This document shows, one piece after another, positions 16,048 through 33,649 of a stretch of 64,000 nucleotides of DNA (positions are counted from its first letter, which is position 1; every line of letters begins with the position of its first letter). The DNA comes from a bacterium (GTDB lineage: Bacteria > Patescibacteriota > Microgenomatia > Curtissbacterales > GWA2-41-24), in the NCBI GenBank assembly GCA_021813945.1, contig JAKAJD010000001.1, positions 73,744 through 137,743 on the forward strand, given 5' to 3'. Both the position numbers and the translations under genes were made by a program. The notes beneath the pieces are model-generated. The model searched no databases. It was not told the origin of the DNA and saw nothing but the letters and a program-made list of their open reading frames with translations.

Positions 16048-17055
16048 TTAGTAACGAGTCTTTACAGTGTCAACTAGCCTTCTGGCAGTTAATACGCAAG
16101 TGTTAAGCTTTGCAGAAAGTATGGCAAAATACCCGTTTCCATAGTCGATTAAGTCGGTAATTCTTTCGTCCGAGAGCTCGACATCTGGTCGAAGTACTTT
16201 TATAACTCTCAAAGTATCTATTAACTTTGCATTTTTCATCGATGGGATGTATGTCGAATCTTTGTAGTTAGCAGTTTTATCAGAATGGTTTAAAGGGGGA
16301 TATTTTGAAACAGATCTAACTGCCGAGCTTTCAACGTTCCAAAGGAGATGGTATGGAGTTTTACTATAAGGGAGTATTGAATAAAAATTACCATCCATGA
16401 TAGTGACGCCAATCCCGGATAGTTCTTTTGGCAGATTTAAAACTGGAACATTGCATATGTCGTATCGGTATTTTTTAACCGGTAAATTTAGTATTTGGTT
16501 GATTCGATTTAAACTTGAATAGGTGGCATTTACAATTATCTGAAATTTATTCTTATCTTCAATTTGAAATTGCCTGTTTAAAAATACCTTAACCTTTGTT
16601 TTTTTCAATAAGCGTTTTGCAATCAGCTTCATTTTTTCAAGATCTATTATTTGTTCTTTGACGGAAATGCAACCTGAAACTTCTCGAGCATTTAAAATAT
16701 TGTTTGCAGGAAATTTTTCTTCGTGTGGTAAATTTAGCTTTTCGCAAAACTTTATGTATTGCTCAAAACTTACCCTGGAACCGTTTTTACTTATTGCATA
16801 ATAATTTTCTTTAACATCAATTAATGCTTCATCAAAATATTCTTTGAAACTTGGAATTCCCTCCTGACACTGTTTGGCTGTAGCAAGACTGCGAGGATAA
16901 TGATAGCCAAGATGAAACCTATTTTGATTCACGTTTGTTGCCCCCAACATCAAATCTTGATTCTGCTCGATGAGGGTTGTATCAACATTTGCTTTGGCCA
17001 GTTCGATGGCGGTTGTAACCCCGAAAATACCACCACCAACAACGAGAGCTTTCAT
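16048..17055 (-). CDS. FAD-dependent oxidoreductase (DAO-like)
   Basis: N-terminal dinucleotide-binding motif MKALVVGGGIFGVTTAIELA. 335 aa. Confidence 0.6.
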   Translation of the reverse strand: MKALVVGGGIFGVTTAIELAKANVDTTLIEQNQDLMLGATNVNQNRFHLGYHYPRSLATAKQCQEGIPSFKEYFDEALIDVKENYYAISKNGSRVSFEQYIKFCEKLNLPHEEKFPANNILNAREVSGCISVKEQIIDLEKMKLIAKRLLKKTKVKVFLNRQFQIEDKNKFQIIVNATYSSLNRINQILNLPVKKYRYDICNVPVLNLPKELSGIGVTIMDGNFYSILPYSKTPYHLLWNVESSAVRSVSKYPPLNHSDKTANYKDSTYIPSMKNAKLIDTLRVIKVLRPDVELSDERITDLIDYGNGYFAILSAKLNTCVLTARRLVDTVKTRY

Positions 17056-18108: not shown

Positions 18109-19044
18109 ATGGCTGTTTATAAAAAGGTTCAGTACCCCGTAAAAATAATTTTTTTAGGTAGTAGACCCGCAAGTGTTAAAGCTCTTGAAATAATAGAGAG
18201 AAAGATTAAGGATCACAAGAAAAACTGGGTTGATGTGACAGTCGTAACTAGTTCAGATGAGCACCCGCCCGAAAGCGTCGTCAAATGGTGGAATGTAGGA
18301 AACCTTGGAAAAGTCGCAAGTAAAATTGGTTTTAAAACACTGGATTCAATATCAGATTTACCGGCTGATCATTTTGATCTTGGTATAAGCTTTTTTTTTA
18401 CAGATATAATCCCAGAAAGAATGATTAATAATAGTTCACGAGGCATCGTTAATATTCATTTTGGTTACCTGCCAACAAATGGTTACTCCAAAAGTAAAGG
18501 GTCACCCCATAAAAAAGGCGAGCCTTATAGCAGGGGAACATATCGCGGAAGCAATGTGCTAAGTCATGCAATAATCAATAATGAAAAATGGCAAGCAGTG
18601 ACACTTCACTTTATAAGCAAAATAATAGATTTGGGGCCTGTTATAGAGCAAGTGTGGAATCCAATCACGAGCAAAACAACTGCATGGGATTTACAGAAGT
18701 TAAGTGAGGACAAAGCTATAAGTCTTTTAGATAAATACTTTTCTCAATTGGTAGACAATCCAGAGAAAATTAAGACCCTTAAACCCGAGCTGTCAAAATA
18801 TCCGTACTATAATAGATCATTATTGCAGGATGCAAAAATATTGCCTCATAACATTTCAAAAGAAAAATTGAACTTATTTGCTAGAGCAATGTCGTTCCCA
18901 AACACAGAACCACCATATTTTTTGGACAAGAACAGTAAAGGTGAGATAAAAAAAAGCTACGTGATATATAAAAAAAACGAGGGAGTAATTATAATGGAGC
19001 CAACACAAAAAAAATTCATCCAAAAAATTGAAGACATAACATGA
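18109..19044 (+). CDS. sugar/THF N-formyltransferase (Fmt/ArnA-N-like) with catalytic-loop insertion and C-terminal extension
   Basis: N-terminus KIIFLGS. The formyl-transferase catalytic segment is split: NIHFGYLP [22-aa insert TNGYSKSKGSPHKKGEPYSRGT] YRGSNVLSHAIINNE. Then GVTLHF...IDLGPVIEQ (catalytic Asp). About 110 extra aa at the C-terminus. Confidence 0.65.
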   Translation: MAVYKKVQYPVKIIFLGSRPASVKALEIIERKIKDHKKNWVDVTVVTSSDEHPPESVVKWWNVGNLGKVASKIGFKTLDSISDLPADHFDLGISFFFTDIIPERMINNSSRGIVNIHFGYLPTNGYSKSKGSPHKKGEPYSRGTYRGSNVLSHAIINNEKWQAVTLHFISKIIDLGPVIEQVWNPITSKTTAWDLQKLSEDKAISLLDKYFSQLVDNPEKIKTLKPELSKYPYYNRSLLQDAKILPHNISKEKLNLFARAMSFPNTEPPYFLDKNSKGEIKKSYVIYKKNEGVIIMEPTQKKFIQKIEDIT

Positions 19045-19059
19045 AACTATATAAAATAT

Positions 19060-20322
19060 TTAGTTGTTAACATCCGAATTTGTTGAACGTTTTAATAAAT
19101 AAAATTGCGTTGCAGCCTGAAGAGACCTAACTATAACTTTACTAACTACAGCTCCCATCAGTCCAAAAAGTGGAATTAAAATGATAAGGCTGATAACAGT
19201 TATTGCTAGGTAAACAATGTTCATCGCATAAATAGATCGTGTATCCCGCCTCTTAATAAGCCCTAAGCTTAGCAAGTTTCCTGGATAGTAAAGAAGGCTA
19301 AGAGAAAAAATTTGTGAAATAAAAGTCGCAGACGTTGAGTAACCAGGAAAAAGAATTTTAAAAATCACTGGGGCCAGAACAATATACATGCCAACAATCG
19401 CCAAAACTGGTATTTCAAGTTGGACAGATTTTTTCCACAGATCTCCAAAAAGGTTTTTTTCGCTTATTGATGCAATTTTTGGTTGCCCCAAACCTAAAAG
19501 AACTTTAAAAAAAGTATGAATTTGCATAGGTATTAAAATCGCAAAAGCGTAAATTGCATTATTGGTAAATCCTAAAAGTAGAGGTACTAAGAACCTATCC
19601 AAATAATCAGCGGAAATTGTAAAAAATTGTGAAAGACTTAAATGCATGCCTAAACTTGCCATATCTTCGTCCATAATGTTGTTTTCAATGTCCTTATAAG
19701 CAATATAAGCTAATATCATTCCGGCAATTGCTGTTGACCAGGCAGAAAAAAGAGCAACGAGAATTATGCTCGGGAATTTCCACAAGGCAAAAGCAGTTGC
19801 CAAAAGGGAAGAATATTGAAATATGATGGAAAAAATGGCGACCTTTTTAAAATTCTTCTTGCCTGTTAAAAAAGATATGGAAAGACTAGTCGCGCTAGAA
19901 ATAGGAAATGCAAGAGCGCTTACGAATGTCGCTAAACCCAAGCTAGGATTTTGCCTAAAAGAAAAATAAACTGATCCAAAAACCAGCAAAAGAAATCCTA
20001 TCATTGACCATCTAAAAACAGATCGAACGGCGAATTTATAAGTGCCGTCTTTGCCTTCTGCAACCGATTGCGTTAATGCTTGCCCCATGCCTGGGAGCGC
20101 AGTTAAGCTCATGAATCCCAAAGCAGACATTAAAAAAGAAAATTGACCGTAAATATCCTTGGGCCAAATTCTTGCAAATAAAGCGGAAAGAAAGATGCCA
20201 CCGACAAACGAAATTAATGTCGAAAATGCTAACCAAAAACCTCCATGCAAAAAGTAAGGAAGGTCAAGGCCAAATAGATTGGAATACTTATCAACTTGCG
20301 ATTTTAAGAAACTTTTTTCCAT
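19060..20322 (-). CDS. Wzx-like oligosaccharide flippase / polysaccharide biosynthesis protein (MOP superfamily)
   Basis: 420 aa with about 12 predicted TM helices spread over the whole length. No large soluble domain. Confidence 0.55.
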   Translation of the reverse strand: MEKSFLKSQVDKYSNLFGLDLPYFLHGGFWLAFSTLISFVGGIFLSALFARIWPKDIYGQFSFLMSALGFMSLTALPGMGQALTQSVAEGKDGTYKFAVRSVFRWSMIGFLLLVFGSVYFSFRQNPSLGLATFVSALAFPISSATSLSISFLTGKKNFKKVAIFSIIFQYSSLLATAFALWKFPSIILVALFSAWSTAIAGMILAYIAYKDIENNIMDEDMASLGMHLSLSQFFTISADYLDRFLVPLLLGFTNNAIYAFAILIPMQIHTFFKVLLGLGQPKIASISEKNLFGDLWKKSVQLEIPVLAIVGMYIVLAPVIFKILFPGYSTSATFISQIFSLSLLYYPGNLLSLGLIKRRDTRSIYAMNIVYLAITVISLIILIPLFGLMGAVVSKVIVRSLQAATQFYLLKRSTNSDVNN

Positions 20323-21881
20323 ATTGTAATTTTCCCGCCGTCGGGTAATTTTATTTCATTGGGCATTTCTTTCCATGTATTAGAATCTATGTTGTTCAAT
20401 AATGTTTCATTGAAAACATTCAAATCTTTCGGACCTGTAACGCCTCCCGTTTTCATAATCATGTAGTCACCTTTATCAAAAGCGGCTTGAATTTCAAAAT
20501 AATTGGTATTTTTTGGAAAATAAGAAACCGTATGAATCTCAAGAGGCAATTTTGCCAAGAGCGCATAGTATTGTAAGGTATTTATATTATAAGCTTCATT
20601 CTCCGACGCTGAAATAACTATTTTACGTACACCATTCTTATTATCGTTCGAGATATATGTCAGTGTTTCTGAAACTGGCCATTTTTGAGAATTCGATGCC
20701 TTGACGTAGTTTCCAATTTGCTTATCAGCAAGTATTAAGGGTCCAATTGCCAATTCTTTATTAATTAGCTTGGCGGCAAACACCGCAGTATTTAAAAAGA
20801 CAAGAACAGGAAATATCATCGTAAGAACCAATATCACCAATAATCGCTTTGGGAAAAGAATTGTAATCAATCTAGAAATAAAGATTGCAACGACTGGAAG
20901 TAGAGGCAGCATTAAACGGTAGTCTTTATTTGGACCCAAGTAAAAAATAATAAAAGGGATTAAGAACCATCCAAGCAAAGTAGAATTTAGTTTGAGTCTT
21001 TTCCTTTGAAAATAAAACAGAATAATAAGAGTGAGAGATATTACAAACCAATACGCAGACATTCCATAATTTATAAAATCTAAAGCAGAACGGTATAAGT
21101 TACTAGCAGAAAAAGAGGACCCATAGTATAGACTTCCAAGAAGTGAAGTGTCTGTAGATCTTTTAGCTTTCCAAAGAACAGTCAAGATGTTTCTGGCATA
21201 CCAGGGTAGTGTAATTACCAAGGCAGGCACGGAAAAAATTAAAAGGTTTTTTAGATTAAAAATCGCCTTCTTGTTTTTTCTCCATACTTCGTAAATCAGT
21301 ATAGTTGCCGGCCCAGTGATAAAGAGAAAAAAATGAAACTTCATCATCATCCCTAATCCGGAGGTAATTCCCACAAAAAATAAATATTTTTTATTTTTAA
21401 GCTGTTCTGTTTTAAAAGCAAAAAAGATCCAGGCTACTACAAAAGCAGTCAAACCAAATTCAACTAAAAAATAACGAGATAGCCCATAAAAAAGGGGCAT
21501 CGTAGAAATTACAAGGCAAGAAATAAAGGCAGTTCCTTCGTCGAATAGTAAAGAGACGAGCTTAATGAAAAAGACGAAAAACATTAAGGCAAAAACTATA
21601 TTCAGGGTCACTGCAACATGATAACTTGAGCCAAAAATTAAGTATAAGGGAATAGGCAAAATCGTAATAAGCGGAGCTTTCGTTCCTAAAATCGTGGTTG
21701 TTTTCGCCAAAAAACTAAAAATTCCTTGCTCATTTAATGTTTGAAACAACATTTGAGCGCCAGTTAGGTAGTGTGCCTCATCCCAGAAAGGGGGAAGATT
21801 ATTTTTAAAAATCCAAAAGGCAGTAATTGATGTAAAAAGTAAAATCCATAAATAAAAAACAAAACGCCAACGGGAACTCAT
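20304..21881 (-). CDS. GT-C membrane glycosyltransferase, ArnT/PMT_2-like (GT39/GT83-type)
   Basis: N-terminal TM helix followed by PPFWDEAHYLTGAQ (DE motif of the first loop). More than 10 TM helices, then a soluble C-terminal ~150 aa domain. Confidence 0.6.
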   Translation of the reverse strand: MSSRWRFVFYLWILLFTSITAFWIFKNNLPPFWDEAHYLTGAQMLFQTLNEQGIFSFLAKTTTILGTKAPLITILPIPLYLIFGSSYHVAVTLNIVFALMFFVFFIKLVSLLFDEGTAFISCLVISTMPLFYGLSRYFLVEFGLTAFVVAWIFFAFKTEQLKNKKYLFFVGITSGLGMMMKFHFFLFITGPATILIYEVWRKNKKAIFNLKNLLIFSVPALVITLPWYARNILTVLWKAKRSTDTSLLGSLYYGSSFSASNLYRSALDFINYGMSAYWFVISLTLIILFYFQRKRLKLNSTLLGWFLIPFIIFYLGPNKDYRLMLPLLPVVAIFISRLITILFPKRLLVILVLTMIFPVLVFLNTAVFAAKLINKELAIGPLILADKQIGNYVKASNSQKWPVSETLTYISNDNKNGVRKIVISASENEAYNINTLQYYALLAKLPLEIHTVSYFPKNTNYFEIQAAFDKGDYMIMKTGGVTGPKDLNVFNETLLNNIDSNTWKEMPNEIKLPDGGKITIWKKVS

Positions 21882-22573
21882 CGAATCCGCTTATTTGCAA
21901 TCACAACCTCCCGTACGAGGTAATAAATAAATTTAAATCCAGTTGGTATCGCATATGAGGTACTTTGCCCCCCAATTCTATTACCCTCAATAGTTGGTAT
22001 TTCTGCGATTTTAGCGCGAGCCTTAAGGGCTCTGATTGTCATCTGAAACTCTATTGCGAAACCGGATGCATCCAAATTTAATCTTTTAAATAAACTTCTT
22101 TTTATCGCCCTGTAGCCATTTATTGTATCGCTTACTTGCCCTCCCCAAATTAAGCGTACCGCAAGAGAAAATACTATATTGGCCCATGCCCTAAACTTCA
22201 AGACTTTATCATCTTCTTCATTACGAGAATTTTTTTTGAATCTTGAGGCGATAGCCAAATCATTTCCTGCTTTTAACAAATTAATAAGTTTTGGTATGTC
22301 TGCAGGATTTTCATTACCATCTGGACTAAAAAAAACTAAATACTCTCCGTGAGATTTTGCAATAGCAATTTTAAAGGCCTCACCTCGGCCTTGTTTTTTT
22401 TGCTTTACGACTGGAATTTGGTTTTTTTTAAAAAACTCAACGGTTCCATCTGTAGATTTGAAATCCACCGCAAAAAACTCATCGACTGCTTCGAATGGAA
22501 TCTTACGGATAAGTGCCTTGACACCATCGATTTCATTTCTTGTCAAAATTACTAAAGTTGATTTTTGTACCAT
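21878..22573 (-). CDS. GT2 glycosyltransferase, short DPM1-like polyprenyl-phosphate sugar synthase
   Basis: LVILTRNE ... KSTDGT ... SPDGNENP motifs. 231 aa. 4-nt overlap with the downstream GT-C. Confidence 0.7.
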   Translation of the reverse strand: MVQKSTLVILTRNEIDGVKALIRKIPFEAVDEFFAVDFKSTDGTVEFFKKNQIPVVKQKKQGRGEAFKIAIAKSHGEYLVFFSPDGNENPADIPKLINLLKAGNDLAIASRFKKNSRNEEDDKVLKFRAWANIVFSLAVRLIWGGQVSDTINGYRAIKRSLFKRLNLDASGFAIEFQMTIRALKARAKIAEIPTIEGNRIGGQSTSYAIPTGFKFIYYLVREVVIANKRIR

Positions 22574-23517
22574 GAAATTGTCCTTTCCAAACCATCTTCC
22601 AGTTGTATTTGCGCTTTAAAACCGGTTTTTTCAAATGCTTTTTTAGTATCACAATTGCGCCTTGGTTGACCATCAGGTTTAGTAGTATCAAATTTAATCG
22701 TTGCTCTTTTACCAGATATTTTAACTATCATTTTTGCGAGATCCCCAATAGTGATTTCCTCATCTGCCCCGATGTTAACTGGATCTGCAATAGGATATTT
22801 TTCCGTTGTGACAAGAAGACCTTTCGCAAAATCTTCGGCATATAAAAAAGATCTAGTTTGTTTGCCGCTACCCCAAACAATTAACGGGTTTTCACCATCA
22901 AAAACACGTTTTATCATTCCAGGGATAACATGAGATATTTTGGGATCGAAATTGTCCCTTGGACCATATGCATTATAAGGTCTGGCTATTGCAACTTTCA
23001 TACCAAATTCCATTTGATAAAATTTACCAAAGAGCTCGGCCACTCTTTTTGCCCACCCATAGCCCAAATTTGTGGGTTCTGGATCATTCAAAAAACCCTC
23101 ATTTTCAGGCGTGGGTATTGTGCAGTTACGAGGATAAACACATGCAGAGCTTGTAATGAGAAATCTCTCCACCTTATTTCTACGGCCAGCTTCGATCATA
23201 TTTTTCGCAATTGCCACGTTATCACTAAACATCGTCGCTGGGTGATTAAGATTAAACTGAATTCCAGCAACTTTAGATGCCAAGTTAAGAATTACTTCTT
23301 GATTTTTAGATACCTTCATCGCAGCTCCGAAATCAGCAAGATCACATTTGATGACGGAAACCTTATCTTTTAAGTGGTCGATATTTTTTGTATGCCCCGA
23401 ACTCGTACTAACCGTTACCTTTGCATTCGCCTGAACTAAAATTTCCACAACAAAAGAACCTATAAATCCAGCGCCACCTGTTACAAGGACTCTTTTATTT
23501 CTCCAAAAGTTTTGCAT
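22552..23517 (-). CDS. extended SDR, GDP-L-fucose synthase (Fcl/GMER/ColC)-like 3,5-epimerase/4-reductase
   Basis: VLVTGGAGFIGSFVV. YGWAKR (YxxxK). C-terminal KPDGQPRRNCDTKKAFEKTGF resembles the Fcl PDGTPRKLLD signature. Confidence 0.6.
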   Translation of the reverse strand: MQNFWRNKRVLVTGGAGFIGSFVVEILVQANAKVTVSTSSGHTKNIDHLKDKVSVIKCDLADFGAAMKVSKNQEVILNLASKVAGIQFNLNHPATMFSDNVAIAKNMIEAGRRNKVERFLITSSACVYPRNCTIPTPENEGFLNDPEPTNLGYGWAKRVAELFGKFYQMEFGMKVAIARPYNAYGPRDNFDPKISHVIPGMIKRVFDGENPLIVWGSGKQTRSFLYAEDFAKGLLVTTEKYPIADPVNIGADEEITIGDLAKMIVKISGKRATIKFDTTKPDGQPRRNCDTKKAFEKTGFKAQIQLEDGLERTISWYKNQL

Positions 23518-24700
23518 TTTTCAAAAAAATACCAAATAGATCTTGTACATATTTTATATCATCTTGTACTAGGTACGGATGACTACCAATAATAAATCCT
23601 CGATCTTCCAACATTTTTGCAACGGGAAACTTTAAGCTTATATCTCCAAAAACCTTTTTATAAATAGGTTGAGATAAAAGCGGCATGAATAGTCGTGTCT
23701 CTACACCGTGTTCTTCCAAAAATAAAAGAAACTCCTCTTTTTCGATTCGTTTATCTAAAATCACTATTGGATAAAGCATGTAGCAATGCTCTGCATTTTT
23801 TCTGATCTGTGGCAATTGGAAAAAATGCGAATATCGGCTCAAGGCATTTGTTAATGATTTACCAACTTTTTGCCTTTTTTTAATAATAGAATTTTTGTTC
23901 TCCAGCTCAGCCAGACCCAGGGCACCTTCCATCTCAGTTAATCGGAAGCTGTAGCCTATATGCTCAAATTGAAATCTTCTTTCAATAAGAGAGTTTAAGC
24001 GGATCCGGTTATTTGTGTCATCATCTTCAATCTTAAGATAAATATTGTCTCTGCCATGAAACATAAGACTCTTCATCATCACTGCCAATTGTTCATCATT
24101 TGTGGTGACTATTCCCCCCACGCCGGTCACGATAATGTGAGCAACATAAGTGGAAAAAACCGCTATGTCTCCAAAGGATCCAACTGGCTGATCTAGATAA
24201 TTTACAAACATGGCTTCACAGGAATCTTCTATCACTTTCAAATTGTATTTTCTTGCGATTTTCATAATTTTTTGCATCTCTGCGCTTTGGCCAAATAGAT
24301 GAACAGGCATGATAGCTTTAGTTTTTGGTGAAATCTTCTCTTCGATTTTTAATGGATCAATACAATAATATTTCTCTTCAACATCGACAAAGACAGGTTT
24401 CAAATTATTGTGGAGAACTGCATTTGAAGACGCAATGAAGGTCAAAGCCGGGACAATTACTTCATCCCCGTCTTCCCACGAATAAGCTTCCTTCAGTGCA
24501 TGGATTGCAACCTGTAGCGCGCTAGTTCCGCTGTTTGTAACAATTGCATATTTACGGTTATGAAGTCTTGCAAACTCTTTCTCAAATTTTTCGGTAAATG
24601 AGCCGTAAGACAACCTATTATCGTTTAAGGTTTGGAGTACGTATTTTTTTGCTTTTTGGGATATTTTCAAATCGGCGATCGCAATATGCCTTTTTGTCAT
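23495..24700 (-). CDS. DegT/DnrJ/EryC1-family PLP/PMP enzyme with His replacing the Schiff-base Lys; predicted ColD/E1-type nucleotide-sugar 3-dehydratase
   Basis: DegT-fold motifs are present (NSGTSALQVAIHAL, GDEVIVPALTF, TKAIMPVHLFG, VIEDSCEA). The active-site segment reads FSTYVAHIIVTGVGG. The paralogs at 27934 and 34602 have FSFYPTKNLGAFGDGG and FSFHGTKNAASGEGG, so Lys is replaced by His here. Confidence 0.65.
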   Translation of the reverse strand: MTKRHIAIADLKISQKAKKYVLQTLNDNRLSYGSFTEKFEKEFARLHNRKYAIVTNSGTSALQVAIHALKEAYSWEDGDEVIVPALTFIASSNAVLHNNLKPVFVDVEEKYYCIDPLKIEEKISPKTKAIMPVHLFGQSAEMQKIMKIARKYNLKVIEDSCEAMFVNYLDQPVGSFGDIAVFSTYVAHIIVTGVGGIVTTNDEQLAVMMKSLMFHGRDNIYLKIEDDDTNNRIRLNSLIERRFQFEHIGYSFRLTEMEGALGLAELENKNSIIKKRQKVGKSLTNALSRYSHFFQLPQIRKNAEHCYMLYPIVILDKRIEKEEFLLFLEEHGVETRLFMPLLSQPIYKKVFGDISLKFPVAKMLEDRGFIIGSHPYLVQDDIKYVQDLFGIFLKNAKLLEK

Positions 24701-24779: not shown

Positions 24780-25517
24780 ATGAAGAAACCAGTAGTAGGA
24801 ATTTTGGGAGCAGGTGAGGTTGGACAAACAGTCTCTAAAATTTTCTCAAAAAAATACTCAGTGCTAAAAAAAGATTTGAATTATGACGAACTTAAAAAAT
24901 TCAAAATAGAGGTTTTACATGTTTGCTTACCATATAACAATAAATTCGAAACGATCGTTTTAGCACAAATTAAAAAAAACAAACCGAAACTAGCAATCAT
25001 TCATTCCACCGTTAAACCTGGAACAACTGCTAAAATTTTTAAAAAAGCAAAAATTCCAACTGTTCACTCACCAGTTATGGGTACGCATCCGAATTTAGAA
25101 TCAGACATACTAAAATTTGTAAAAATTATTGGGCCGGAAGATAGAGAGTCGGCAAAACTTGCTGTAAATCATCTCAAAAGTGTTGGAATTAAATCGAGGA
25201 TTTTCAGAAATTCACTAGAGTCTGAAATTGCCAAACTCTTTGACACAACATACTATGGCTGGAATATTATTTTTTCAAAAATAGTTTGGCAAGTATGCAA
25301 AAAGGCAGGTGTAAATTTTGAAAACGTGTACACAAATTTGAATAAAATCTACAATGAAGGTTATCGAGAATCGAAAGAGAATGTAATAAGACCAATACTT
25401 AATTACCAACCAGGGCCAATTGGAGGGCATTGTGTAGTTCCTAACGCTAAACTGCTTCATTCATCGTCACCTAATATAGTCTCAAAAACATTGATTGCTG
25501 AGAATAAAAAATTCTAA
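24780..25517 (+). CDS. NAD(P)-binding Rossmann protein, possibly a truncated UDP-glucose/GDP-mannose dehydrogenase-like enzyme
   Basis: VVGILGAGEVGQTV dinucleotide fold. GPIGGHCVVPNAKLL resembles the GGxCxxKD catalytic-Cys motif of NDP-sugar 6-dehydrogenases. Only 245 aa, so the UDP-binding C-terminal domain is missing. Confidence 0.35.
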   Translation: MKKPVVGILGAGEVGQTVSKIFSKKYSVLKKDLNYDELKKFKIEVLHVCLPYNNKFETIVLAQIKKNKPKLAIIHSTVKPGTTAKIFKKAKIPTVHSPVMGTHPNLESDILKFVKIIGPEDRESAKLAVNHLKSVGIKSRIFRNSLESEIAKLFDTTYYGWNIIFSKIVWQVCKKAGVNFENVYTNLNKIYNEGYRESKENVIRPILNYQPGPIGGHCVVPNAKLLHSSSPNIVSKTLIAENKKF

Positions 25518-25523
25518 AGGGTC

Positions 25524-26099
25524 GTGATAAAAATAAGTGCATTAGAAAAAAAACAAATTGCCGAAGTTGCTAAAATTCACAAAAAAGTGTTATCCGACGG
25601 ATTCGTATCGACATTGTCAGAAAACTTTTTAAATAAGTTTTATCTCGCTTTAACAGAGTCTCCCGATATTTTTACCCTTGTTGCAACACGAAACAAAAAA
25701 ATTCTAGGGTTCGTAAGTTGCACGACAAACGTTAAAAAACTGCCATTTTTCCTTATCAGAAATTTATGGAAAGATATAATCCTAGAAATGCTAAAAAATC
25801 CTTCAGTAATTCTTAAATTTATAGAGTCCATCTTCTATCCAAGTTTTAATGATTCTGCAGTTTCCTGTGAGGCTCTATCAATCGCAGTAATAAATACTGA
25901 AAGAGGCCAGGGAATCGGGAAGAACTTAATTTTAAATGCCAAATCAGAATTTAAAAGAAGAAAATTTGCCGAGTTTCAGCTATCGGTTAGAAGCACCATG
26001 CTAAATGCAAATAATTTCTACCAAAAAATTGGATTATCGAAAATTAAAACTGCAAAATTCTTAGGTGAAGAAATTAATTTTTGGAAAGGTAAGTGTTAA
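25524..26099 (+). CDS. GNAT family N-acetyltransferase
   Basis: Acetyl-CoA-binding motif RGQGIGKNLI. 191 aa. GTG start. Confidence 0.6.
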   Translation: MIKISALEKKQIAEVAKIHKKVLSDGFVSTLSENFLNKFYLALTESPDIFTLVATRNKKILGFVSCTTNVKKLPFFLIRNLWKDIILEMLKNPSVILKFIESIFYPSFNDSAVSCEALSIAVINTERGQGIGKNLILNAKSEFKRRKFAEFQLSVRSTMLNANNFYQKIGLSKIKTAKFLGEEINFWKGKC

Positions 26100-27937
26100 T
26101 AACCCAATCTAAACAGATCTAGCTTAAATTCTCGCTTAGCGCCCAAAAAGCTTCTGGTCAAATCCAAGGTTGTTATGTAGCTAACTTTTGCGTTAACATT
26201 GTCCTCTCTTGGCCAGGCATCCAGTTTGCCGGGAACCGAATCGAAAACTCGGCTAACCAGAAGAAATTTCGGATTGTATTTTTGGTAATTGCTATTAACT
26301 CCGCCAACAAAATTTAAATTTGGAGCCCAATAAATAGGCCAAAAATATGCGTCTATTGAGAGCTCATGGGCGTAAAAGCCTATGACTCCTTGTTTGCCAA
26401 CCAGGCTCCCAAGAGAAGCGGAAGACTCAGCAATATTATATGTAGGCTTATAAACTATCGTTGAAATTCCGACGAGATTAAATAAGATGTTTATACCCAA
26501 AAAAGGCAAAACTAAAATTTTTGTTGATTGGTTCCTATTCAAAAATATATAGAAAATTACAAATAGTACTGCCACAATCGATGACACGACTGCTGTTTTT
26601 GGGCCAGATAGCAGATCAAAAAAATTCAAATATGACCAAAAAGTTCCAACAAAAGAGGCAATCGGCAAAAAGAGTAAAATACTGATGTCAAAAAATATAA
26701 ACTCTTTGATTAACCATTTTTTTCTGAAAGCAATTAGAGCAATAATAACTACTAAAAATAATGAAAGGTATGGAAGCTTTTCTACAATTAATTGGTTGGC
26801 AGTAAGCCTTTTGGCGATGGCCAAAATTACTTTGGCAGATATTAAAGCAATTGGGATGGAAGCAATAATTGCAATGGCAAAATTTAAATTTTTCTTTGCC
26901 CCAGAAAAAAAAGATAAGCTTTTTAGCTGAATTCTGCTCGTTTTAATTTCAAAAACGGTTTGGGAAGCTAGTATTGCAATTGGAATAATCAAACCTAGGA
27001 TTCTAGCGTTTGAAAGGCGAGAAATAAATGGGCCCAAAATTAGAATGCCGCAAAACCAAAGTATTAAAAATTTTCGCTCTGTTGTGCGTGTTCTCTTATC
27101 GGATAAATAATTAATTGCGTTTGCCAGTGCAAGGATAACAAGTGTAAAAAGAAATGGTGAACCCCAAAAGGGGTGAAGAAAGAATCTACCAACATTGCTC
27201 CAAATATCACTTAAAGTCTCAGGGGCGTACCAATTACCGAAAGTTTTATAGATCAGTCCAATTTGTCTTCCCCAAATTGTGTAAAGTGAACCAAAAGTCA
27301 GAAGCACTAGTCCTGAAAATGGGATTAAAAATTTTAATATTTTTTTTACTGTTATGTTTTTATTTCTAATATTGGTAAGAAGGATTAATCCTGCTGAAGG
27401 GAGATAAAGAAAAGAGGTGGTTTTTGATAGGATGCTAAGTGCAAAAGCAGCACCTCCAAGTGCTTCTTTTTTCTCTTTTAACAAAAAGAAAAAACCAACT
27501 GTTGCAAACATAACAGAAAGCGATTCACCAACTGCTAACCGATTATGAAGCAAAAGCAACGTATTTATAGAAACAAGTAAAGCAGAAAGCAAAGCAACTT
27601 TAACTGACATTTTAAGGGCGATTTTGTATGTAAAAAGAACAGTTATTACTCCAGCTAAAGCGCTGATTAGTCTGGCTTGCCAAAAACCTACACCAAAAGC
27701 TAAAAAACTTAAAAGCGCACCGACGCTAAAAAGAGGTGCTGCCGCAAAATCATGATAAAAATCGTCGCGAGCAGTTTGATGAAATAAAGCGAGGTTTCTA
27801 GCGTTGTACAGCCAATAACCCTCATCTCCTACTTGTCCACTATCCAAAAGTATTGAGGGGTCCGATCCCAAAGAATTAAATCGTAAAAACGCCGCAAGTA
27901 TTATTACTAGTACAAAAACTATTTTATGTTTCTTCAC
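26096..27937 (-). CDS. GT-C membrane glycosyltransferase, ArnT/PMT_2-like
   Basis: 613 aa. DSGQVGDEGYWLYNARNLA (DE motif) after the first helix. More than 12 TM helices plus a C-terminal soluble domain. GTG start. Confidence 0.6.
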   Translation of the reverse strand: MKKHKIVFVLVIILAAFLRFNSLGSDPSILLDSGQVGDEGYWLYNARNLALFHQTARDDFYHDFAAAPLFSVGALLSFLAFGVGFWQARLISALAGVITVLFTYKIALKMSVKVALLSALLVSINTLLLLHNRLAVGESLSVMFATVGFFFLLKEKKEALGGAAFALSILSKTTSFLYLPSAGLILLTNIRNKNITVKKILKFLIPFSGLVLLTFGSLYTIWGRQIGLIYKTFGNWYAPETLSDIWSNVGRFFLHPFWGSPFLFTLVILALANAINYLSDKRTRTTERKFLILWFCGILILGPFISRLSNARILGLIIPIAILASQTVFEIKTSRIQLKSLSFFSGAKKNLNFAIAIIASIPIALISAKVILAIAKRLTANQLIVEKLPYLSLFLVVIIALIAFRKKWLIKEFIFFDISILLFLPIASFVGTFWSYLNFFDLLSGPKTAVVSSIVAVLFVIFYIFLNRNQSTKILVLPFLGINILFNLVGISTIVYKPTYNIAESSASLGSLVGKQGVIGFYAHELSIDAYFWPIYWAPNLNFVGGVNSNYQKYNPKFLLVSRVFDSVPGKLDAWPREDNVNAKVSYITTLDLTRSFLGAKREFKLDLFRLGY

Positions 27938-29031
27938 TTTTTTCCAACGAAGAAGTTTTTTACTTGCGAAATAACTTCATCCTGGTCGGTTTCCTTAAGG
28001 CTAGGATAAATGGGAAGACTTAAAATTTTGGCTTGTATTTCTTCGGTGACATCAAGCCGCTCATCTGCGAATTCCTTAAAAGCCGGCTGTCTGTAAGTAG
28101 GGTAGGGGTAATGGATATCAGACCCAACGCCATGTTGTTTGAGGTATTTTTTCAGCCTGTCGCGTTCTTTGGTTGCAATCACAAAAAGATGGTTTGCCGA
28201 TTTTGCTTTTGGGATGATTTTTTGAAATCTTAATTTAAGAGCAGATAATTTGTCTCTATACCGTGCGGCTATTTTCTCTCTCATCGTGTTTTCATCAGAA
28301 AGAACAGACAATTTTACTCTTAAAATCGCAGCTTGAATTTCATCAAGCCTACTGTGAGGGTAAGCACTTACATGCCAAAATCTTTTGGTTTGGCCCCCAT
28401 GTCTTAATATTTTGACCGCCGCAAAAACGCTCTTGTTATTTGTTGTAACCGCACCTCCATCACCAAAAGCGCCTAAATTTTTGGTTGGATAAAAACTAAA
28501 TGCTCCCGCATCACCAAAAGTACCTACCAATTTTTCTTCTATCATTGCACCGTTTGCTTGGCAAGCATCTTCAACAACTTTAATTTTTGCATCTTTCGCG
28601 AAGTCCAAAACCTTTTTCATATCGCATGGATTACCATAAATATGAACCGGCATAATAGCTTTAACTTTCAAATCCATTTTTCTGCTTGCTTCAGCGACAT
28701 CAATAGTCCAGCCATTAGGGTCAATATCGCAAAAAACTGGAATAGCTCCAGCTTCTAAAATCGCAATAATTGTAAAGGGCGAAGTGAATGAGACTGTCAA
28801 AACCTTATCACCTACCCCTATTCCTAGCGCTTTTAGCGAAAGTGTAAGCGAATCGGTTCCGCTGCCAACACCACAAATAAATTTGCTACCGATAAACTCG
28901 CCAAATTCGGATTCAAACTTTTCTAGCTGTTGACTCAAGATGTAAGAATTTGACTTTACAACCTCATCGATTGCCAATCGAATTTTTTTCAATATCTGAG
29001 GATTCGTCGTTAAATCAGTAACAGGAATCAT
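27934..29031 (-). CDS. DegT/DnrJ/EryC1-family PLP-dependent sugar aminotransferase (PglE/PseC-like)
   Basis: GVGSGTDSLTLSLKALG, KAIMPVHIYG and the Lys-containing FSFYPTKNLGAFGDGGAV. The track start is TTG 29070; the first ATG gives the typical N-terminus MIPVTDL at 29031. Confidence 0.85.
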   Translation of the reverse strand: MIPVTDLTTNPQILKKIRLAIDEVVKSNSYILSQQLEKFESEFGEFIGSKFICGVGSGTDSLTLSLKALGIGVGDKVLTVSFTSPFTIIAILEAGAIPVFCDIDPNGWTIDVAEASRKMDLKVKAIMPVHIYGNPCDMKKVLDFAKDAKIKVVEDACQANGAMIEEKLVGTFGDAGAFSFYPTKNLGAFGDGGAVTTNNKSVFAAVKILRHGGQTKRFWHVSAYPHSRLDEIQAAILRVKLSVLSDENTMREKIAARYRDKLSALKLRFQKIIPKAKSANHLFVIATKERDRLKKYLKQHGVGSDIHYPYPTYRQPAFKEFADERLDVTEEIQAKILSLPIYPSLKETDQDEVISQVKNFFVGKK

Positions 29032-29032
29032 A

Positions 29033-30016
29033 TTAGAAATAATATTTCTTGTTTGCCATATAATAGTCAATAGTTTTTTTAATTCCTTCGTTTATATCTG
29101 TTTTTGGTTTCCAGCCGCAAACTTTACCTATTTTTGATATATCGGCAATGTAGTCTCCAACTTCAATTTTTTTTCTATTTTTCGGAAATTCGATTATTCT
29201 GATTTTACCCGAACCCCACACCTTTATTATTGATTGGGTAAAGCCTAAAAGAGAAATTGGCATCCCTCCTAAGTTATAAACTTGTTCATCAGCTTTTTTT
29301 AAGTTACCAGCCTTAAGGCAAGCCAGAACTACATCATCTACGTAATTAACATCCCTAATCTGCTTGCCGCCACCCATGAGCGAGACAGTTTTCCCTTCCA
29401 TGATTTGTCTTATAAACCAATTTAAAACACCTTGTTTAGAGTGTTTCATCTGGTGCCTTGGCCCAAAAGTATTGGTCATTCTAAGTGAGACAACTTGTAT
29501 TCCATAAACTTTTTGATACATAAAATGATATTTCTCTCCGGCTATCGCATCAACACCATTTATGTCGGTCGGCTCTAAGGGGTGGCTTTCATCGACCGGC
29601 AAATAGTGCGCTTTTCCATACTGGTTTCTCGTTCCAGCATAAACAATCTTCACCCCTCTGTTATATTTTTTACAAGCTTCAAGCAAACATAATTGAGCTC
29701 GGCAATTTATATCCAAATCCAAAAAGGGATTTGCCATACTATCCACGTGAGAAAGTGTTCCGGCAAGATTGAAAATAATATCTTTACCCTTAACCGCCCT
29801 TGCAATCTCCTTATCGTTACGTAAGTCGGCAATTTTTAATCTGACAAAGCTTCTAACTGGTTTAATATTAAATTTATTGCCACCCATACCAGGTACTAGT
29901 GAATCATATATTTCAACATTTGCTCCGCGCTCAACGAGTGCAATTGCCAAGTTACTTCCAATAAATCCGAGCCCACCTGTTATGAGTACTCGTTTGTTTT
30001 TGTATAAATTAGTCAT
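29033..30016 (-). CDS. extended SDR nucleotide-sugar epimerase/dehydratase (UXS/ArnA-C-related)
   Basis: VLITGGLGFIGSNLAIAL. YxxxK. LRMTNTFGPR...NWFIRQ resembles the UXS segment RIFNTFGPRM...SNFI. Confidence 0.7.
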   Translation of the reverse strand: MTNLYKNKRVLITGGLGFIGSNLAIALVERGANVEIYDSLVPGMGGNKFNIKPVRSFVRLKIADLRNDKEIARAVKGKDIIFNLAGTLSHVDSMANPFLDLDINCRAQLCLLEACKKYNRGVKIVYAGTRNQYGKAHYLPVDESHPLEPTDINGVDAIAGEKYHFMYQKVYGIQVVSLRMTNTFGPRHQMKHSKQGVLNWFIRQIMEGKTVSLMGGGKQIRDVNYVDDVVLACLKAGNLKKADEQVYNLGGMPISLLGFTQSIIKVWGSGKIRIIEFPKNRKKIEVGDYIADISKIGKVCGWKPKTDINEGIKKTIDYYMANKKYYF

Positions 30017-30740
30017 ATCGTTTTAAAATTATTAAATTCCGCCACAAGTCTATTTGTTCAACAAGTGTCTTAGAAATCCGCCTAAAGTTAAAAAATTGTG
30101 AATGTCCATAAAGCCTAGGATAATGATGCACGCCAACCTCCGAGAATTTAGCACCATGCTTTTGAAGCTTTTTAACCAGTTCGACGCAAATGACTCCACT
30201 ATCGTAATGCAAATTTATCTTATTGAGAGCTTTTCTTCTAATTAGCCTAAAATCGCAGTCTATGTCTCTCACTTTTATGTTAAAAACCAGTCTGGAAAAA
30301 TGATGATAAAGTGTACCTATTACCATTCGGTAAAAAGCGTCATGCCTCTTCAATTTATAGCCTTGAACCACATCAATATTTGAAGTCATTCTTGGAAGCA
30401 ACTTTAAAATTTCTTTTACGTCGTATTGACCGTCACCATCTGTATAGAATACCAACTCTTTAGTTGCATATTTAAAACCTGATTTTAGCGCACCTCCGTA
30501 ACCTCGATTTTTTTTATGAAAGATTAACTTAAGGTTAAAATTTTTTTCTGCCAAATCTCTTAAAATTTTACGACTGTTATCTGTCGAACCGTCATCTACA
30601 ACAATCACTTCCCAATCCCGCGCAACCTTTTTTAAAACCTCACTCGCTTCTACGACGAGCTTACTAATTGAGCTCTCGTCGTTGTAGCAGGGAAAAAATA
30701 CTGAAATCGAAGGTTTCAATTTCAATTCGCTCTCAGCCAT
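30009..30740 (-). CDS. GT2 glycosyltransferase, short DPM1/ArnC-like polyprenyl-phosphate sugar synthase
   Basis: SVFFPCYNDE ... VVDDGSTDNS ... TDGDGQY motifs. The track start is GTG 30788; the first ATG (MAESELK) is at 30740. Confidence 0.75.
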   Translation of the reverse strand: MAESELKLKPSISVFFPCYNDESSISKLVVEASEVLKKVARDWEVIVVDDGSTDNSRKILRDLAEKNFNLKLIFHKKNRGYGGALKSGFKYATKELVFYTDGDGQYDVKEILKLLPRMTSNIDVVQGYKLKRHDAFYRMVIGTLYHHFSRLVFNIKVRDIDCDFRLIRRKALNKINLHYDSGVICVELVKKLQKHGAKFSEVGVHHYPRLYGHSQFFNFRRISKTLVEQIDLWRNLIILKRYD

Positions 30741-31675
30741 AAAATATACCTTTTTAAACCTTCCTTGAGGTCCGTTTCCGGCTTCCACCCTAGTAATCTG
30801 TTTGCTTTTTTAATGTCTGCCCATGTGTTTTCCATATCACCCGCACATTTACTGAGCTTTATTATTTTAGTTTTTTTGCCAGTTACATACTCAATCATTT
30901 TTATGAAATCTGAAATAACAATTGGATGATTATTTCCAAGATTTATCACCTCAAAACCGGATTCTTTTTCTAGCGATAAAACAATACCATTTGTAATATC
31001 ATCAACAAATGTGTAATCTCGACTTGATAATCCATCGCCATACTGTTGTATTGTCTCACCATTAAAGATTTTTTTTGTAAAAATAGCCGGGGCCATGTCT
31101 GGCCGGCTTCTTGGGCCATAAACCGTAAAAAAACGGAGGATTGTGCAGTTAAGGTCGAACGACTTGTGAAACGATTCGACAAAAAATTCAGCAGAGCGCT
31201 TTGATGCTCCATAAGGTGAAATTATTTGATCACAAGGATCACTTTCCGAAAAAGGCAATTGTTTAGAATTGCCATAAACGGAAGAGGAAGAGCCGAAAAT
31301 AAACCTTTTGACTTTATAATCAACGCTGAGCTTTAAAAGATTTACTGTTCCTAAAACATTTACCTTCGCGTATAATTTCGGTTTGTTAATAGACGGTCTA
31401 ACGCCGGCTCTAGCCGCCAAATGGACAATAACATCGATTTTCTCATTTCTAAAAATCCTCTCGAGTTTGTTGAGATTTAATATATCCTCGCGGTACAGCT
31501 TAAAATTGTGTTTTTTTAAAACACTAATAATATTTTCCTCTTTGATTTTAGGGTCGTAATAATCATTGAAATTATCAACACCAATCACGTCATATTTTCG
31601 CAAGAGCAACTTTTCGACCAAGTTAGAACCAATAAACCCGGCAGCGCCTGTAACCAGAATTTTTGATTTAGACAT
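30722..31675 (-). CDS. extended SDR, UDP-glucuronate 4-epimerase-like
   Basis: ILVTGAAGFIGSNLVEKLL...VDNFNDYYD and LRFFTVYGPRSRPDMAPAIF match the UDP-GlcA 4-epimerase signature RFFTVYGPWGRPDMA. Confidence 0.7.
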   Translation of the reverse strand: MSKSKILVTGAAGFIGSNLVEKLLLRKYDVIGVDNFNDYYDPKIKEENIISVLKKHNFKLYREDILNLNKLERIFRNEKIDVIVHLAARAGVRPSINKPKLYAKVNVLGTVNLLKLSVDYKVKRFIFGSSSSVYGNSKQLPFSESDPCDQIISPYGASKRSAEFFVESFHKSFDLNCTILRFFTVYGPRSRPDMAPAIFTKKIFNGETIQQYGDGLSSRDYTFVDDITNGIVLSLEKESGFEVINLGNNHPIVISDFIKMIEYVTGKKTKIIKLSKCAGDMENTWADIKKANRLLGWKPETDLKEGLKRYILWLRAN

Positions 31676-33011: not shown

Positions 33012-33649
33012 CTCTTTTGAGCTTTGATTAAAACTTCCATACCTAGATTTGTGTATTTAATACTTAAGATTCTAAAACCTGAAGCCTTAATTTTTTTGGT
33101 TAAATCTTTAGGCTTTAAACAATTTATGTGGCTATGGTTCCATACAGAACCTTTCCATTTTGTCCAGAACCACCAAACTGTTCTAAAAAGCATGCTATCT
33201 GTATCTTGAATAACAATTAAATTACCCTTTCTTTTTAAGACCCTGTTTATCTCTGAAAGAGCTTGATCTGGGTCGTGCAAATGCTCTAGAGTTTCTACTG
33301 CTAGTACTATATCGAAAGAACTTTTCCTAAATGGCAACTTATGAGCATCTCCATGCAGGAAGGTGATATTCTGTTTAGTTTTTATTGCATATTTTATGGC
33401 GTTTGCGTATTTATCGATGCCGGTTATAGCAATTTTCGGGAATAGTTTTTTGATTGCTGCAGCCGTTGTGCCATCAGCGCAACCAATATCAAGAAGCTTA
33501 GTGTGACGATTCTCCAGCAGTTTTGCTAGATTGCTCCATTTATGTTGATGCCAATATTTTTGAAATAAATTGCTTTTCGTCCCACTTTCATAATAATCAG
33601 GTGGAACCTGTTTTAATATTTCTTCAAATTGTGCTGAATCCGGGCTCAT
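33008..33649 (-). CDS. class I SAM-dependent methyltransferase
   Basis: Motif I LLDIGCADGTT. FDIVLAVETLEHL. Confidence 0.7.
   Translation of the reverse strand: MSPDSAQFEEILKQVPPDYYESGTKSNLFQKYWHQHKWSNLAKLLENRHTKLLDIGCADGTTAAAIKKLFPKIAITGIDKYANAIKYAIKTKQNITFLHGDAHKLPFRKSSFDIVLAVETLEHLHDPDQALSEINRVLKRKGNLIVIQDTDSMLFRTVWWFWTKWKGSVWNHSHINCLKPKDLTKKIKASGFRILSIKYTNLGMEVLIKAQKR

Follow-up and report, generated by a model that had tools for sequence, protein, structure and literature searches.

A predicted histidine-type sugar 3-dehydratase and a candidate lipid-carrier route for a 3,6-dideoxyhexose in a Curtissbacterales glycan island

Here we analyzed a five-gene operon in a 64,000-nucleotide stretch of the genome of an uncultured, groundwater-type member of the Curtissbacterales (Patescibacteria; assembly GCA_021813945.1, contig JAKAJD010000001.1, positions 73,744 to 137,743), which is referred to below as the window. 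The operon probably encodes a tailoring-and-delivery module that makes a GDP-3,6-dideoxyhexose of the colitose type, loads it on polyprenyl phosphate and delivers it through a GT-C fold glycosyltransferase. Its central enzyme is a 401-residue DegT-family protein (23495..24700, minus strand), here called His-DegT, in which a His stands in place of the Schiff-base Lys of aminotransferases. It is predicted to be a pyridoxamine 5'-phosphate (PMP)-dependent nucleoside diphosphate (NDP)-4-keto-6-deoxyhexose 3-dehydratase, an activity that we consider very likely. The residue identities, the clade membership, the conserved gene order and the linkage of the wider family to Gmd genes were all established here. 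Most of what is known of 3,6-dideoxyhexoses concerns their role as immunodominant sugars in the O-antigens of Gram-negative pathogens, which make them with ColD- or E1-type enzymes and attach them through cytoplasmic Leloir transferases.

Five minus-strand open reading frames (ORFs; 24700 to 19060) overlap one another by 4–23 nt and therefore form one operon, in which the His-DegT gene is translationally coupled to that of an extended short-chain dehydrogenase/reductase (SDR) resembling Fcl, GMER and ColC (22552..23517, 321 aa). The genes that follow on the same strand encode a short soluble GT2 similar to DPM1 and AglJ (21878..22573, 231 aa), a PMT_2/ArnT-like GT-C glycosyltransferase (20304..21881, 525 aa) and, in last position, a MOP/Wzx-like polysaccharide-biosynthesis membrane protein (19060..20322, 420 aa) that is a candidate flippase. 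A first-pass annotation had given exact coordinates for the first four of these genes. The motif strings that it quoted are also present, namely FSTYVAHIIVTGVGG in His-DegT, KPDGQPRRNCD in the SDR, and FSFYPTKNLGAFGDGG and FSFHGTKNAASGEGG in two DegT paralogs of the window.

Results

His188 occupies the Schiff-base lysine column

The active-site stretch of His-DegT reads AVFSTYVAHIIVTGVGG. His188 is encoded by CAC (24137-24139, minus strand), a codon two base changes from any Lys codon. In a phmmer comparison against all PDB sequences, His188 aligned with His220 of E1, in the same column as Lys186 of Caulobacter PerA. Among the E1 structures, this column reads His in the wild type (3bcx, 'sfypaHh') and Lys in the H220K mutant (3bb8). 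A MAFFT alignment likewise placed His188 of the query, His188 of ColD, His220 of E1, Lys186 of PerA and the Lys of both window paralogs in one column. The ColD sequence used here is 100% identical to PDB 2gms; a further entry, 3b8x, is the ColD H188N mutant and marks His188 as the altered residue. The replacement of the Schiff-base Lys by His, first proposed from an alignment made by eye, is thus upheld by both alignments, and the alignment by eye was not shifted.

Conservation of this residue was then examined in relatives. The His lies in the motif [FY]S[TS]Y[VI]AH..x[TS]GVGG in 120 of the 120 closest matches listed, which are 59–100% identical to the query. A signature scan of metagenomes gave at least 120 stretches, from which 80 loci were examined; 78 of these encode a family member (43–76% identity) and all 78 have the His, with the limit that the retrieval pattern was the back-translated family signature and itself specified a His codon. 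A search of genome contigs with generic DegT patterns gave 6 family members among the 80 loci listed. A shifted alignment or a sequencing error was rejected on the strength of the phmmer and MAFFT columns, the 120 homologs with His and the two-change codon.

The first-pass annotation regarded the Lys-to-His change as a hallmark of sugar 3-dehydratases, and a review states the same, naming it as the key difference at the catalytic site between the 3-dehydratases E1, ColD and SpnQ and the aminotransferases (PMC8987622). According to this review, ColD regenerates its cofactor without a reductase, while E1 and SpnQ do so via an Fe-S cluster and reductases (PMC8987622). Other active-site residues of His-DegT are also retained: E158-D159 is invariant in the family and E162 is kept (compare EDNCE in ColD). 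We take Asp159 to be the Asp that contacts the pyridine nitrogen and Glu162 to be the acidic residue three positions on, both with roles in PMP binding. Across 33 family sequences of 58–80% identity, 65 columns are invariant, which points to strong purifying selection on His-DegT.

The loop aligned to E1 DCYCAPGCDNTC, whose cysteines we presume to be the [2Fe-2S] ligands of E1, is free of Cys in His-DegT, and C161 is the only conserved Cys of the family. No E3-like reductase was found near His-DegT in the window; the only nearby flavoprotein is a DAO-type oxidoreductase (16048-17055). An E1-type mechanism was rejected on both counts. Since the Fe-S cysteines of E1 are absent, Fe-S-free chemistry like that of ColD, with glutamate-driven turnover, is expected for this branch.

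His-DegT belongs to a separate branch of His-type enzymes

His-DegT matches the Pfam family DegT_DnrJ_EryC1 (PF01041) with 325.8 bits, and its best NCBIfam model is RfbH/E1 (247.1 bits against a cutoff of 423). Its top PDB sequence match is PerA (196.6 bits). By MAFFT alignment it is 36% identical to PerA, 33% to E1 and 25% to ColD. To these we added the family, the two window paralogs, four other His-type sequences and about 90 Lys-type sequences to build a neighbor-joining tree of 113 sequences. In this tree, the His-type sequences are all found together on one side. The set of ColD, E1, three other His clades and the His-DegT family was split from more than 40 Lys-type sequences in 98–99 of 100 bootstraps, and in 94 of 100 when the active-site columns were removed. 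The His-DegT family forms a monophyletic group (100/100), and its sister clade holds ColD and E1 (100/100).

The loop between G216 and G249 follows the same division. It is 25–37 aa long in 22 of 22 His-type sequences, with 32 aa in the window protein, and has a median of 12 aa in 91 Lys-type sequences. Together these features support the assignment of His-DegT to the His-type clade, as opposed to a mutated aminotransferase. As placed by the alignments and the tree, it is an ortholog of neither ColD nor E1 and lies on a separate, deep and uncharacterised branch, the third of His-type dehydratases to be defined, with the signature STY[VI]AH..x[TS]GVGG.

An AlphaFold2 model of His-DegT (pLDDT 92.4) superimposes on PerA, E1 and ColD with TM-scores of 0.83–0.89. 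The best Foldseek E-value was obtained with PerA and the highest query-normalised TM-score with E1 (0.89). Because the fold matches aminotransferases and dehydratases equally, the structure search does not discriminate between them.

With ColD of E. coli O55 and Yersinia, His-DegT shares the DegT fold, the His in place of the Schiff-base Lys, the lack of an Fe-S cluster and a long loop after the HG(R/W) motif, and at the level of the family also the linkage to Gmd and an Fcl-like reductase. The two differ in that His-DegT has Ala-His where ColD has Ser-His, GVGG where ColD has MEGG, and a Phe at the ExxG glycine. The changes of GEGG to GVGG and of the glycine of ED..E.xG to Phe are specific to the family. 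With E1 (RfbH/DdhC) it shares a similar loop length, Ala-His and a Tyr three residues before it (STYVAH in His-DegT, SFYPAH in E1), but its gene neighborhood speaks for GDP sugars and not for CDP sugars. PerA has the same presumed substrate and is encoded next to Gmd. In contrast to His-DegT, PerA carries Lys186, is without the long loop, falls on the Lys side of the tree and makes an amino sugar that needs no reductase. The C3-dehydratases of 3,6-dideoxyheptose synthesis in C. jejuni HS:5 and HS:11 are 62–67% identical to ColD (PMC10440746); they were considered as characterised family members and rejected as ColD orthologs.

The closest database proteins of His-DegT are annotated merely as 'DegT... 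aminotransferase' or 'perosamine synthetase', the labels that pipelines give to members of the branch. The named taxa among the closest listed are mostly Curtissbacteria, Woesebacteria, the Microgenomates group and Patescibacteria. Beyond Patescibacteria, the signature occurs in metagenome-assembled genomes (MAGs) labelled Gammaproteobacteria, Pseudomonadales, Dehalococcoidia, Peribacteria and 'Woesearchaeota'. Overall, the branch is found in uncultured Patescibacteria, in MAGs of Chloroflexota and Proteobacteria, and in others. Even authentic ColD carries no other RefSeq/PGAP name than 'DegT/DnrJ/EryC1/StrS family aminotransferase', and ColC is listed as 'GDP-L-fucose synthase family protein', so that annotation as it stands fails to tell His-type dehydratases from aminotransferases.

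Some relatives carry the His-DegT domain in fusions (related loci compared with the window module are given L numbers here). These take the form of GT2, methyltransferase and His-DegT in one protein of about 865 aa, or of His-DegT with GT4 in one of 801 aa (L091, 490-3087; L157, 857-3445; L009, 9971-12376). A further uncharacterised His-type clade was also seen. It has the motif SFYGSH..(A/C)(A/G)G(N/G)G, is RfbH-like (346 bits) without the E1 cysteines, and occurs at L088 (6703-9203), L030, L062 and L113 (8778-9526).

Linkage to Gmd points to a GDP-linked substrate

In 19 of the 78 metagenome loci, a Gmd-class gene lies directly beside the family member on the same strand, and these 19 genes share 50–62% identity with Gmd proteins that score above the NCBIfam cutoff. 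Chance adjacency to one given gene family would be well under one locus in 78. When the count was limited to the 29 loci whose flanks reach 700 nt or more on each side, Gmd was adjacent in 10, and a Gmd-class or Gmd-like (SDR335-type) gene was within 5 kb in 13. Five loci (L112, L113, L121, L140 and L142) hold Gmd, His-DegT and an Fcl-like gene together, and in Gmd-linked clusters His-DegT usually lies between the other two. Gmd genes above the NCBIfam cutoff of 415 occur near His-DegT in L007 (473.6 bits) and L087 (491.4 bits), and in L010 the His-DegT gene overlaps with one close to the cutoff (391 bits). The closest long contigs, L001, L086 and L003, carry a Gmd-like SDR immediately behind the Wzx-like gene, and sources call it GDP-mannose 4,6-dehydratase; with L087, these close relatives all have a Gmd-like gene within 10 kb. 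The Gmd linkage, together with PerA as the nearest solved relative, points to GDP-4-keto-6-deoxy-D-mannose, the substrate of ColD, and we regard this as the likely substrate of His-DegT.

The adjacent SDR resembles Fcl and ColC

Among NCBIfam models, the SDR scores highest with GDP-L-fucose synthase (Fcl; 210.3 bits, below the equivalog threshold of 500), followed by LegB (137.4), RmlB (125) and GalE (94). Its PDB matches are likewise led by GDP-fucose synthases (177 and 149 bits), with GME at 136 and UXS at 125. All five catalytic residues of E. coli GMER have equivalents in the SDR (S107, C109, Y136, K140 and H179, as counted on the E. coli sequence), which gives it both the Ser/Tyr/Lys triad and the Cys and His epimerisation pair. 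Its TSSACVYP, YGWAK and ISHVIP align with GSSCIYP, YAIAK and NSHVIP of Fcl, and also with ColC. The C-terminal KPDGQPRRNCD conforms to the motif KPDG(T/Q)PR(K/R) shared with Fcl and ColC.

To obtain the authentic ColC, colD was located in E. coli O55:H7 with a back-translated query and the neighboring gene was read (L211, 5081-7167, which is CB9615, NC_013941.1, 2553701-2555787). There colC and colD are adjacent and overlapping, as are the SDR and His-DegT genes in the window, and ColC likewise partners a His-type DegT. The SDR is 28% identical to ColC with the same motifs (E = 2e-38), and ColC is itself close to Fcl (229–235 bits to Fcl structures); the catalytic motifs checked do not tell these two apart. 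The N-terminus of the SDR is different: GGAGFIGS aligns with GME and UXS, and the first 60–70 residues do not align to Fcl. Where beta-2 ends, the SDR has Ser/Thr in place of Asp, which suggests that it uses exchangeable NADPH and not a tightly bound NAD+. Judged by these matches, the SDR is Fcl/ColC-like and not GalE-like, as the first-pass annotation had it, and is an ortholog of neither Fcl nor ColC.

The SDR gene is directly downstream of His-DegT in the window and in L001, L002, L006, L086, L087, L088, L089, L128 and L146, and is in the same gene block in L008. A keto product calls for a reductase partner, which the product of an aminotransferase would not, so an SDR beside His-DegT makes sense. 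With good confidence we predict that the SDR is the reductase of the His-DegT product, acting as an NADPH-dependent 4-ketoreductase and probably also as a 5-epimerase on the 4-keto-3,6-dideoxy sugar.

A candidate lipid-carrier arm follows in the operon

The GT2, a predicted polyprenyl-phosphate glycosyltransferase, matches Pfam Glycos_transf_2 (58.8 bits) and, below the cutoff in each case, the NCBIfam models for AglJ (106.6 bits), Dol-P-hexose transferase (45.9) and PpgS (34.7). Its only PDB sequence match is the GDP-mannose-dependent Dol-P-Man synthase of P. furiosus (5mlz, catalytic domain 24-244). No transmembrane helix is predicted; anchor-less DPM1-type enzymes exist. GT2 orthologs of 49–78% identity follow the His-DegT/SDR pair in L001, L006, L008, L086, L087, L089, L128 and L146, and this trio recurs with overlapping ORFs in distant MAGs of Patescibacteria and others. 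In L089 it forms a near-bare three-gene cassette with no other recognisable glycosyltransferase within 8 kb; one intervening gene and two unannotated polytopic membrane proteins come next.

The GT-C protein matches Pfam PMT_2 (41.5 bits, above the cutoff of 26.1), has about 10 hydrophobic segments and had no sequence match in the PDB. Its 'PPFWDEAHY' (FWDEAHY is residues 32-38) comes directly after the first transmembrane helix, at the position of the loop-1 Asp-Glu of PMT-type enzymes, and an extracytoplasmic transferase that uses a polyprenyl-phosphate sugar is predicted. PMT_2 genes adjoin the module in L001, L002, L008, L010, L086, L087 and L146. The Wzx-like protein (Pfam Polysacc_synt, 45.9 bits; about seven hydrophobic segments) has a counterpart in the same position in L001, L002, L086 and L146. 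The matches to AglJ and 5mlz, and to PMT_2 with its loop-1 DE, bear out the proposal that a DPM1-like GT2 and an ArnT/PMT-like GT-C belong to the operon.

This arrangement resembles the three-component scheme of periplasmic glycosylation, which includes pentofuranose systems (PMC11127046). What the operon has in common with systems such as GtrA/B/*, ArnC/E/F/T, and Ppm1 or DPMS with PMT is a GT2-type polyprenyl-phosphate glycosyltransferase joined by a GT-C and a candidate flippase. Co-transcription with genes that tailor the nucleotide sugar is a feature of the Arn pathway and recurs in the window. The module differs from these systems in several ways. Its GT2 is without a membrane anchor, its candidate flippase is MOP/Wzx-like rather than like GtrA or ArnE/F, and its host is Patescibacteria-type, without lipopolysaccharide (LPS). 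Its sugar, a 3,6-dideoxyhexose donated from GDP, would be without precedent in the literature searched.

Two further modules of DegT, SDR, short GT2 and GT-C were found on the minus strand of the window (26096-30788 and 31668-36441), both built on Lys-type DegT enzymes. In the former, the GT2 is ArnC-like and the GT-C is of the PMT_2 type. The latter is Arn-like, with a WecE-like Lys-DegT (397 bits against a cutoff of 375), a methyltransferase, a GT87-like GT-C and a UXS/ArnA-like SDR (33646-34605, motifs STSEIYGDP and YDESKR). Each of the three modules has its own private GT2 and GT-C. The island seems to be built from repeated Arn-like cassettes, and its design rule appears to be to tailor a nucleotide sugar, load it via a private GT2 and transfer it via a private GT-C.

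Discussion

Proposed pathway

What follows is inferred from the findings above: the enzyme activities, the nucleotide that carries the sugar, its stereochemistry, its loading on lipid and its acceptor. A Gmd, for which the window has no gene, would supply GDP-4-keto-6-deoxy-D-mannose. His-DegT would bind PMP and form a ketimine at C4 of the sugar; His188, as acid/base, would then take the C4' proton of PMP and expel the C3 hydroxyl. Hydrolysis of the 3,4-ene intermediate would give GDP-4-keto-3,6-dideoxy-D-mannose, with PMP remade from pyridoxal 5'-phosphate and glutamate as in ColD. The SDR would epimerise C5 by its Cys/His pair and reduce C4 with NADPH, and the resulting GDP-3,6-dideoxyhexose would be colitose if the stereochemistry follows ColC. 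From GDP the DPM1-like GT2 would move the sugar to polyprenyl phosphate, the lipid-linked sugar would be flipped, perhaps by the Wzx-like protein, and the PMT_2-type GT-C would add it to an acceptor outside the membrane. The colitose-type branch proposed in the first-pass annotation is thus supported by the His-type clade, the Gmd linkage and the recurrent His-DegT/SDR/GT2 trio, with the stereochemistry resting on the analogy to ColC. The weaker part of the scheme is the lipid arm, and it is only on balance that we favor the GT2 as the enzyme that loads the dideoxy sugar of His-DegT and the SDR on polyprenyl phosphate.

Several findings weigh against this pathway. The first-pass annotation had proposed a search for gmd, rfbF/rfbG-type dehydratase and nucleotidyltransferase partners. 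Among all ORFs of the 64-kb window that have at least 100 aa and do not overlap a longer ORF, there is neither a Gmd nor another SDR that bears a 4,6-dehydratase signature, and manC, rfbF, rfbG and nucleotidyltransferases are likewise absent; by motif inspection the SDRs of the window are only UXS/ArnA-like and epimerase-like. Two homolog searches aimed at the window's 975,962-bp contig, one seeded with a true Gmd and one with the Gmd-like SDR335, each gave a list of the best 120 matches that was already full at 65–70% identity or more. Gmd and Fcl are also the ordinary GDP-fucose pair, so the clusters alone are no proof that the SDR acts after the His enzyme. His-DegT falls below every NCBIfam equivalog cutoff and is distant from both ColD (25%) and E1 (33%), the tree of His- and Lys-type DegT sequences is neighbor-joining only, and the changes at GEGG, which is otherwise widely conserved, and at the ExxG glycine are both unexplained. 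The GT2 reads SPD where Dol-P-Man synthase has DAD. L088 first seemed to be strong support but is weakened as such: beside a GDP-glycero-manno-heptose pathway, it pairs a family member with a second His-type DegT of the SFYGSH clade, and as the two cannot both be the sole 3-dehydratase of a single pathway, the locus is not clean support. Finally, other lineages fuse His-DegT to Leloir-type GT2 or GT4 domains (L009, L091 and L157), and the lipid-carrier route is therefore at most lineage-specific.

Alternative explanations

In one alternative, the GDP-3,6-dideoxyhexose is made but is used by ordinary cytoplasmic Leloir glycosyltransferases of the island, and what the co-transcribed GT2 and GT-C handle on polyprenyl phosphate is a common sugar, for instance mannose. 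The only solved relative of the GT2 does use GDP-mannose, the window encodes more than 15 Leloir-type GT4/GT2 enzymes, family members are fused to or flanked by Leloir domains in L005, L009, L091 and L157, and the literature searched holds no paper that links colitose with undecaprenyl phosphate or a GT-C, and no lipid-linked dideoxyhexose. On the other hand, the trio is kept with overlapping ORFs in distant MAGs, the L089 cassette stands without another glycosyltransferase within 8 kb, and private GT2 and GT-C genes accompany each of the three tailoring modules of the window; we consider this alternative unlikely, though it deserves to be taken seriously. A different nucleotide sugar is less probable still. 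His-DegT could be a 3-dehydratase or another PMP-dependent eliminase that acts on a UDP-4-keto-pentose or a UDP/dTDP-4-keto-6-deoxyhexose made by the window's own SDRs. As a variant, the Fcl-like SDR could itself make the 4-keto sugar, in which case the cassette would be self-sufficient and its product a 3-deoxy rather than a 3,6-dideoxy sugar. This would suit a window that lacks Gmd yet has a UXS/ArnA-like SDR (33646-34605) and epimerase-like SDRs, the lack of a dehydratase in the minimal L089 cassette, and the N-terminal Rossmann region of the SDR, which aligns with GME and UXS and not with Fcl. It fits poorly with the strong Gmd linkage of the family across metagenomes, the Gmd-like genes within 10 kb in four close relatives, the GMER epimerase/reductase residues of the SDR and the exchangeable NADPH that its beta-2 Ser/Thr would imply.

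Hardly plausible, in our view, is that the SDR is a GDP-L-fucose synthase and the module delivers L-fucose, with His-DegT acting on a side branch or being a paralog that is regulatory or has no catalytic role. Fcl is indeed the best family match of the SDR, Gmd and Fcl make up the standard fucose pair, and ColC and Fcl are inseparable by the catalytic motifs checked. Against such a role for His-DegT stand its 65 invariant columns in 33 sequences, its translational coupling to the SDR, its usual place between Gmd and the Fcl-like gene in Gmd-linked clusters, and its intact cofactor-binding residues.

Implications

Seen more widely, we tentatively propose a deep branch of PMP-dependent 3-dehydratases, widespread in Patescibacteria and other uncultured lineages, of which the Microgenomates type feeds a three-component system that attaches a colitose-like sugar outside an LPS-less cell. 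If true, this would be the first lipid-monophosphate-linked donor of a dideoxyhexose, and bacteria with tiny genomes would decorate their surface with a lipid-carried dideoxy sugar via a GT-C. Three-component systems would then draw on a broader set of donors, and dideoxy sugars would be known from more organisms than before. For glyco-engineering, the GT2 would be of interest as a soluble enzyme that may charge polyprenyl phosphate with a rare sugar.

Other features of the island and of related loci

At about 35% GC, the window as a whole forms a single long island of glycan-biosynthesis genes, and scans of it for tRNAs and Rfam families gave no hit. The 64 kb contain about 17 GT4/GT2 genes, two Wzx-like genes, one Wzy_C protein, several methyltransferases and two hexapeptide acyltransferases. 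At least seven GT-C-type membrane proteins were present: PMT_2 proteins at 20304, 26096, 50464 and 58089, a GT87-like protein at 31668, a YfhO protein at 46547 and a DUF2142 protein at 37649.

Divergent from the operon lies the gene for a 245-residue Rossmann protein (24780..25517, plus strand), whose membership of the module is uncertain. It has a weak match, in the central domain, to the NCBIfam NDP-sugar dehydrogenase model (47.8 bits against a cutoff of 189.8). It contains GILGAGEVG, and a GGHC like the catalytic-Cys motif of UDP-glucose and GDP-mannose dehydrogenases, and is without the C-terminal domain of these enzymes. A homolog is kept in divergent orientation beside His-DegT in L001, L002, L003, L086, L090 and L146.

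In the module at 26096-30788, the SDR (29033-30016, minus strand, 327 aa) matches the Epimerase Pfam family with 145.8 bits but has no recognisable catalytic YxxxK at the usual position; it reads PTDINGVDAIAGEKYHF and may be atypical or non-redox. Just past the Wzx-like gene of the operon lies a formyltransferase-like protein (18109-19044, plus strand; Formyl_trans_N, 30.6 bits), which could provide an ArnA-N-like activity for Arn-like amino-sugar modules.

In related loci, thiamine pyrophosphate (TPP) enzymes absent from the window occur near family members. They are ALS-like (YerE-like), PDH-E1 alpha/beta-like and split transketolase proteins (L001, 15662-21206; L086, 13650-17203; L113, 7031-8788; L111, 8658-10704; L005, 13471-15200). 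Yersiniose synthesis proceeds by C-branching of a 4-keto-3,6-dideoxy sugar, and by analogy with YerE or AviB these enzymes could add a two-carbon branch to such a sugar. Lastly, L008, labelled Candidatus Woesearchaeota archaeon, encodes a MurJ lipid II flippase (232 bits) beside its block of His-DegT, SDR, GT2 and PMT_2 genes, which makes the archaeal bin assignment doubtful.

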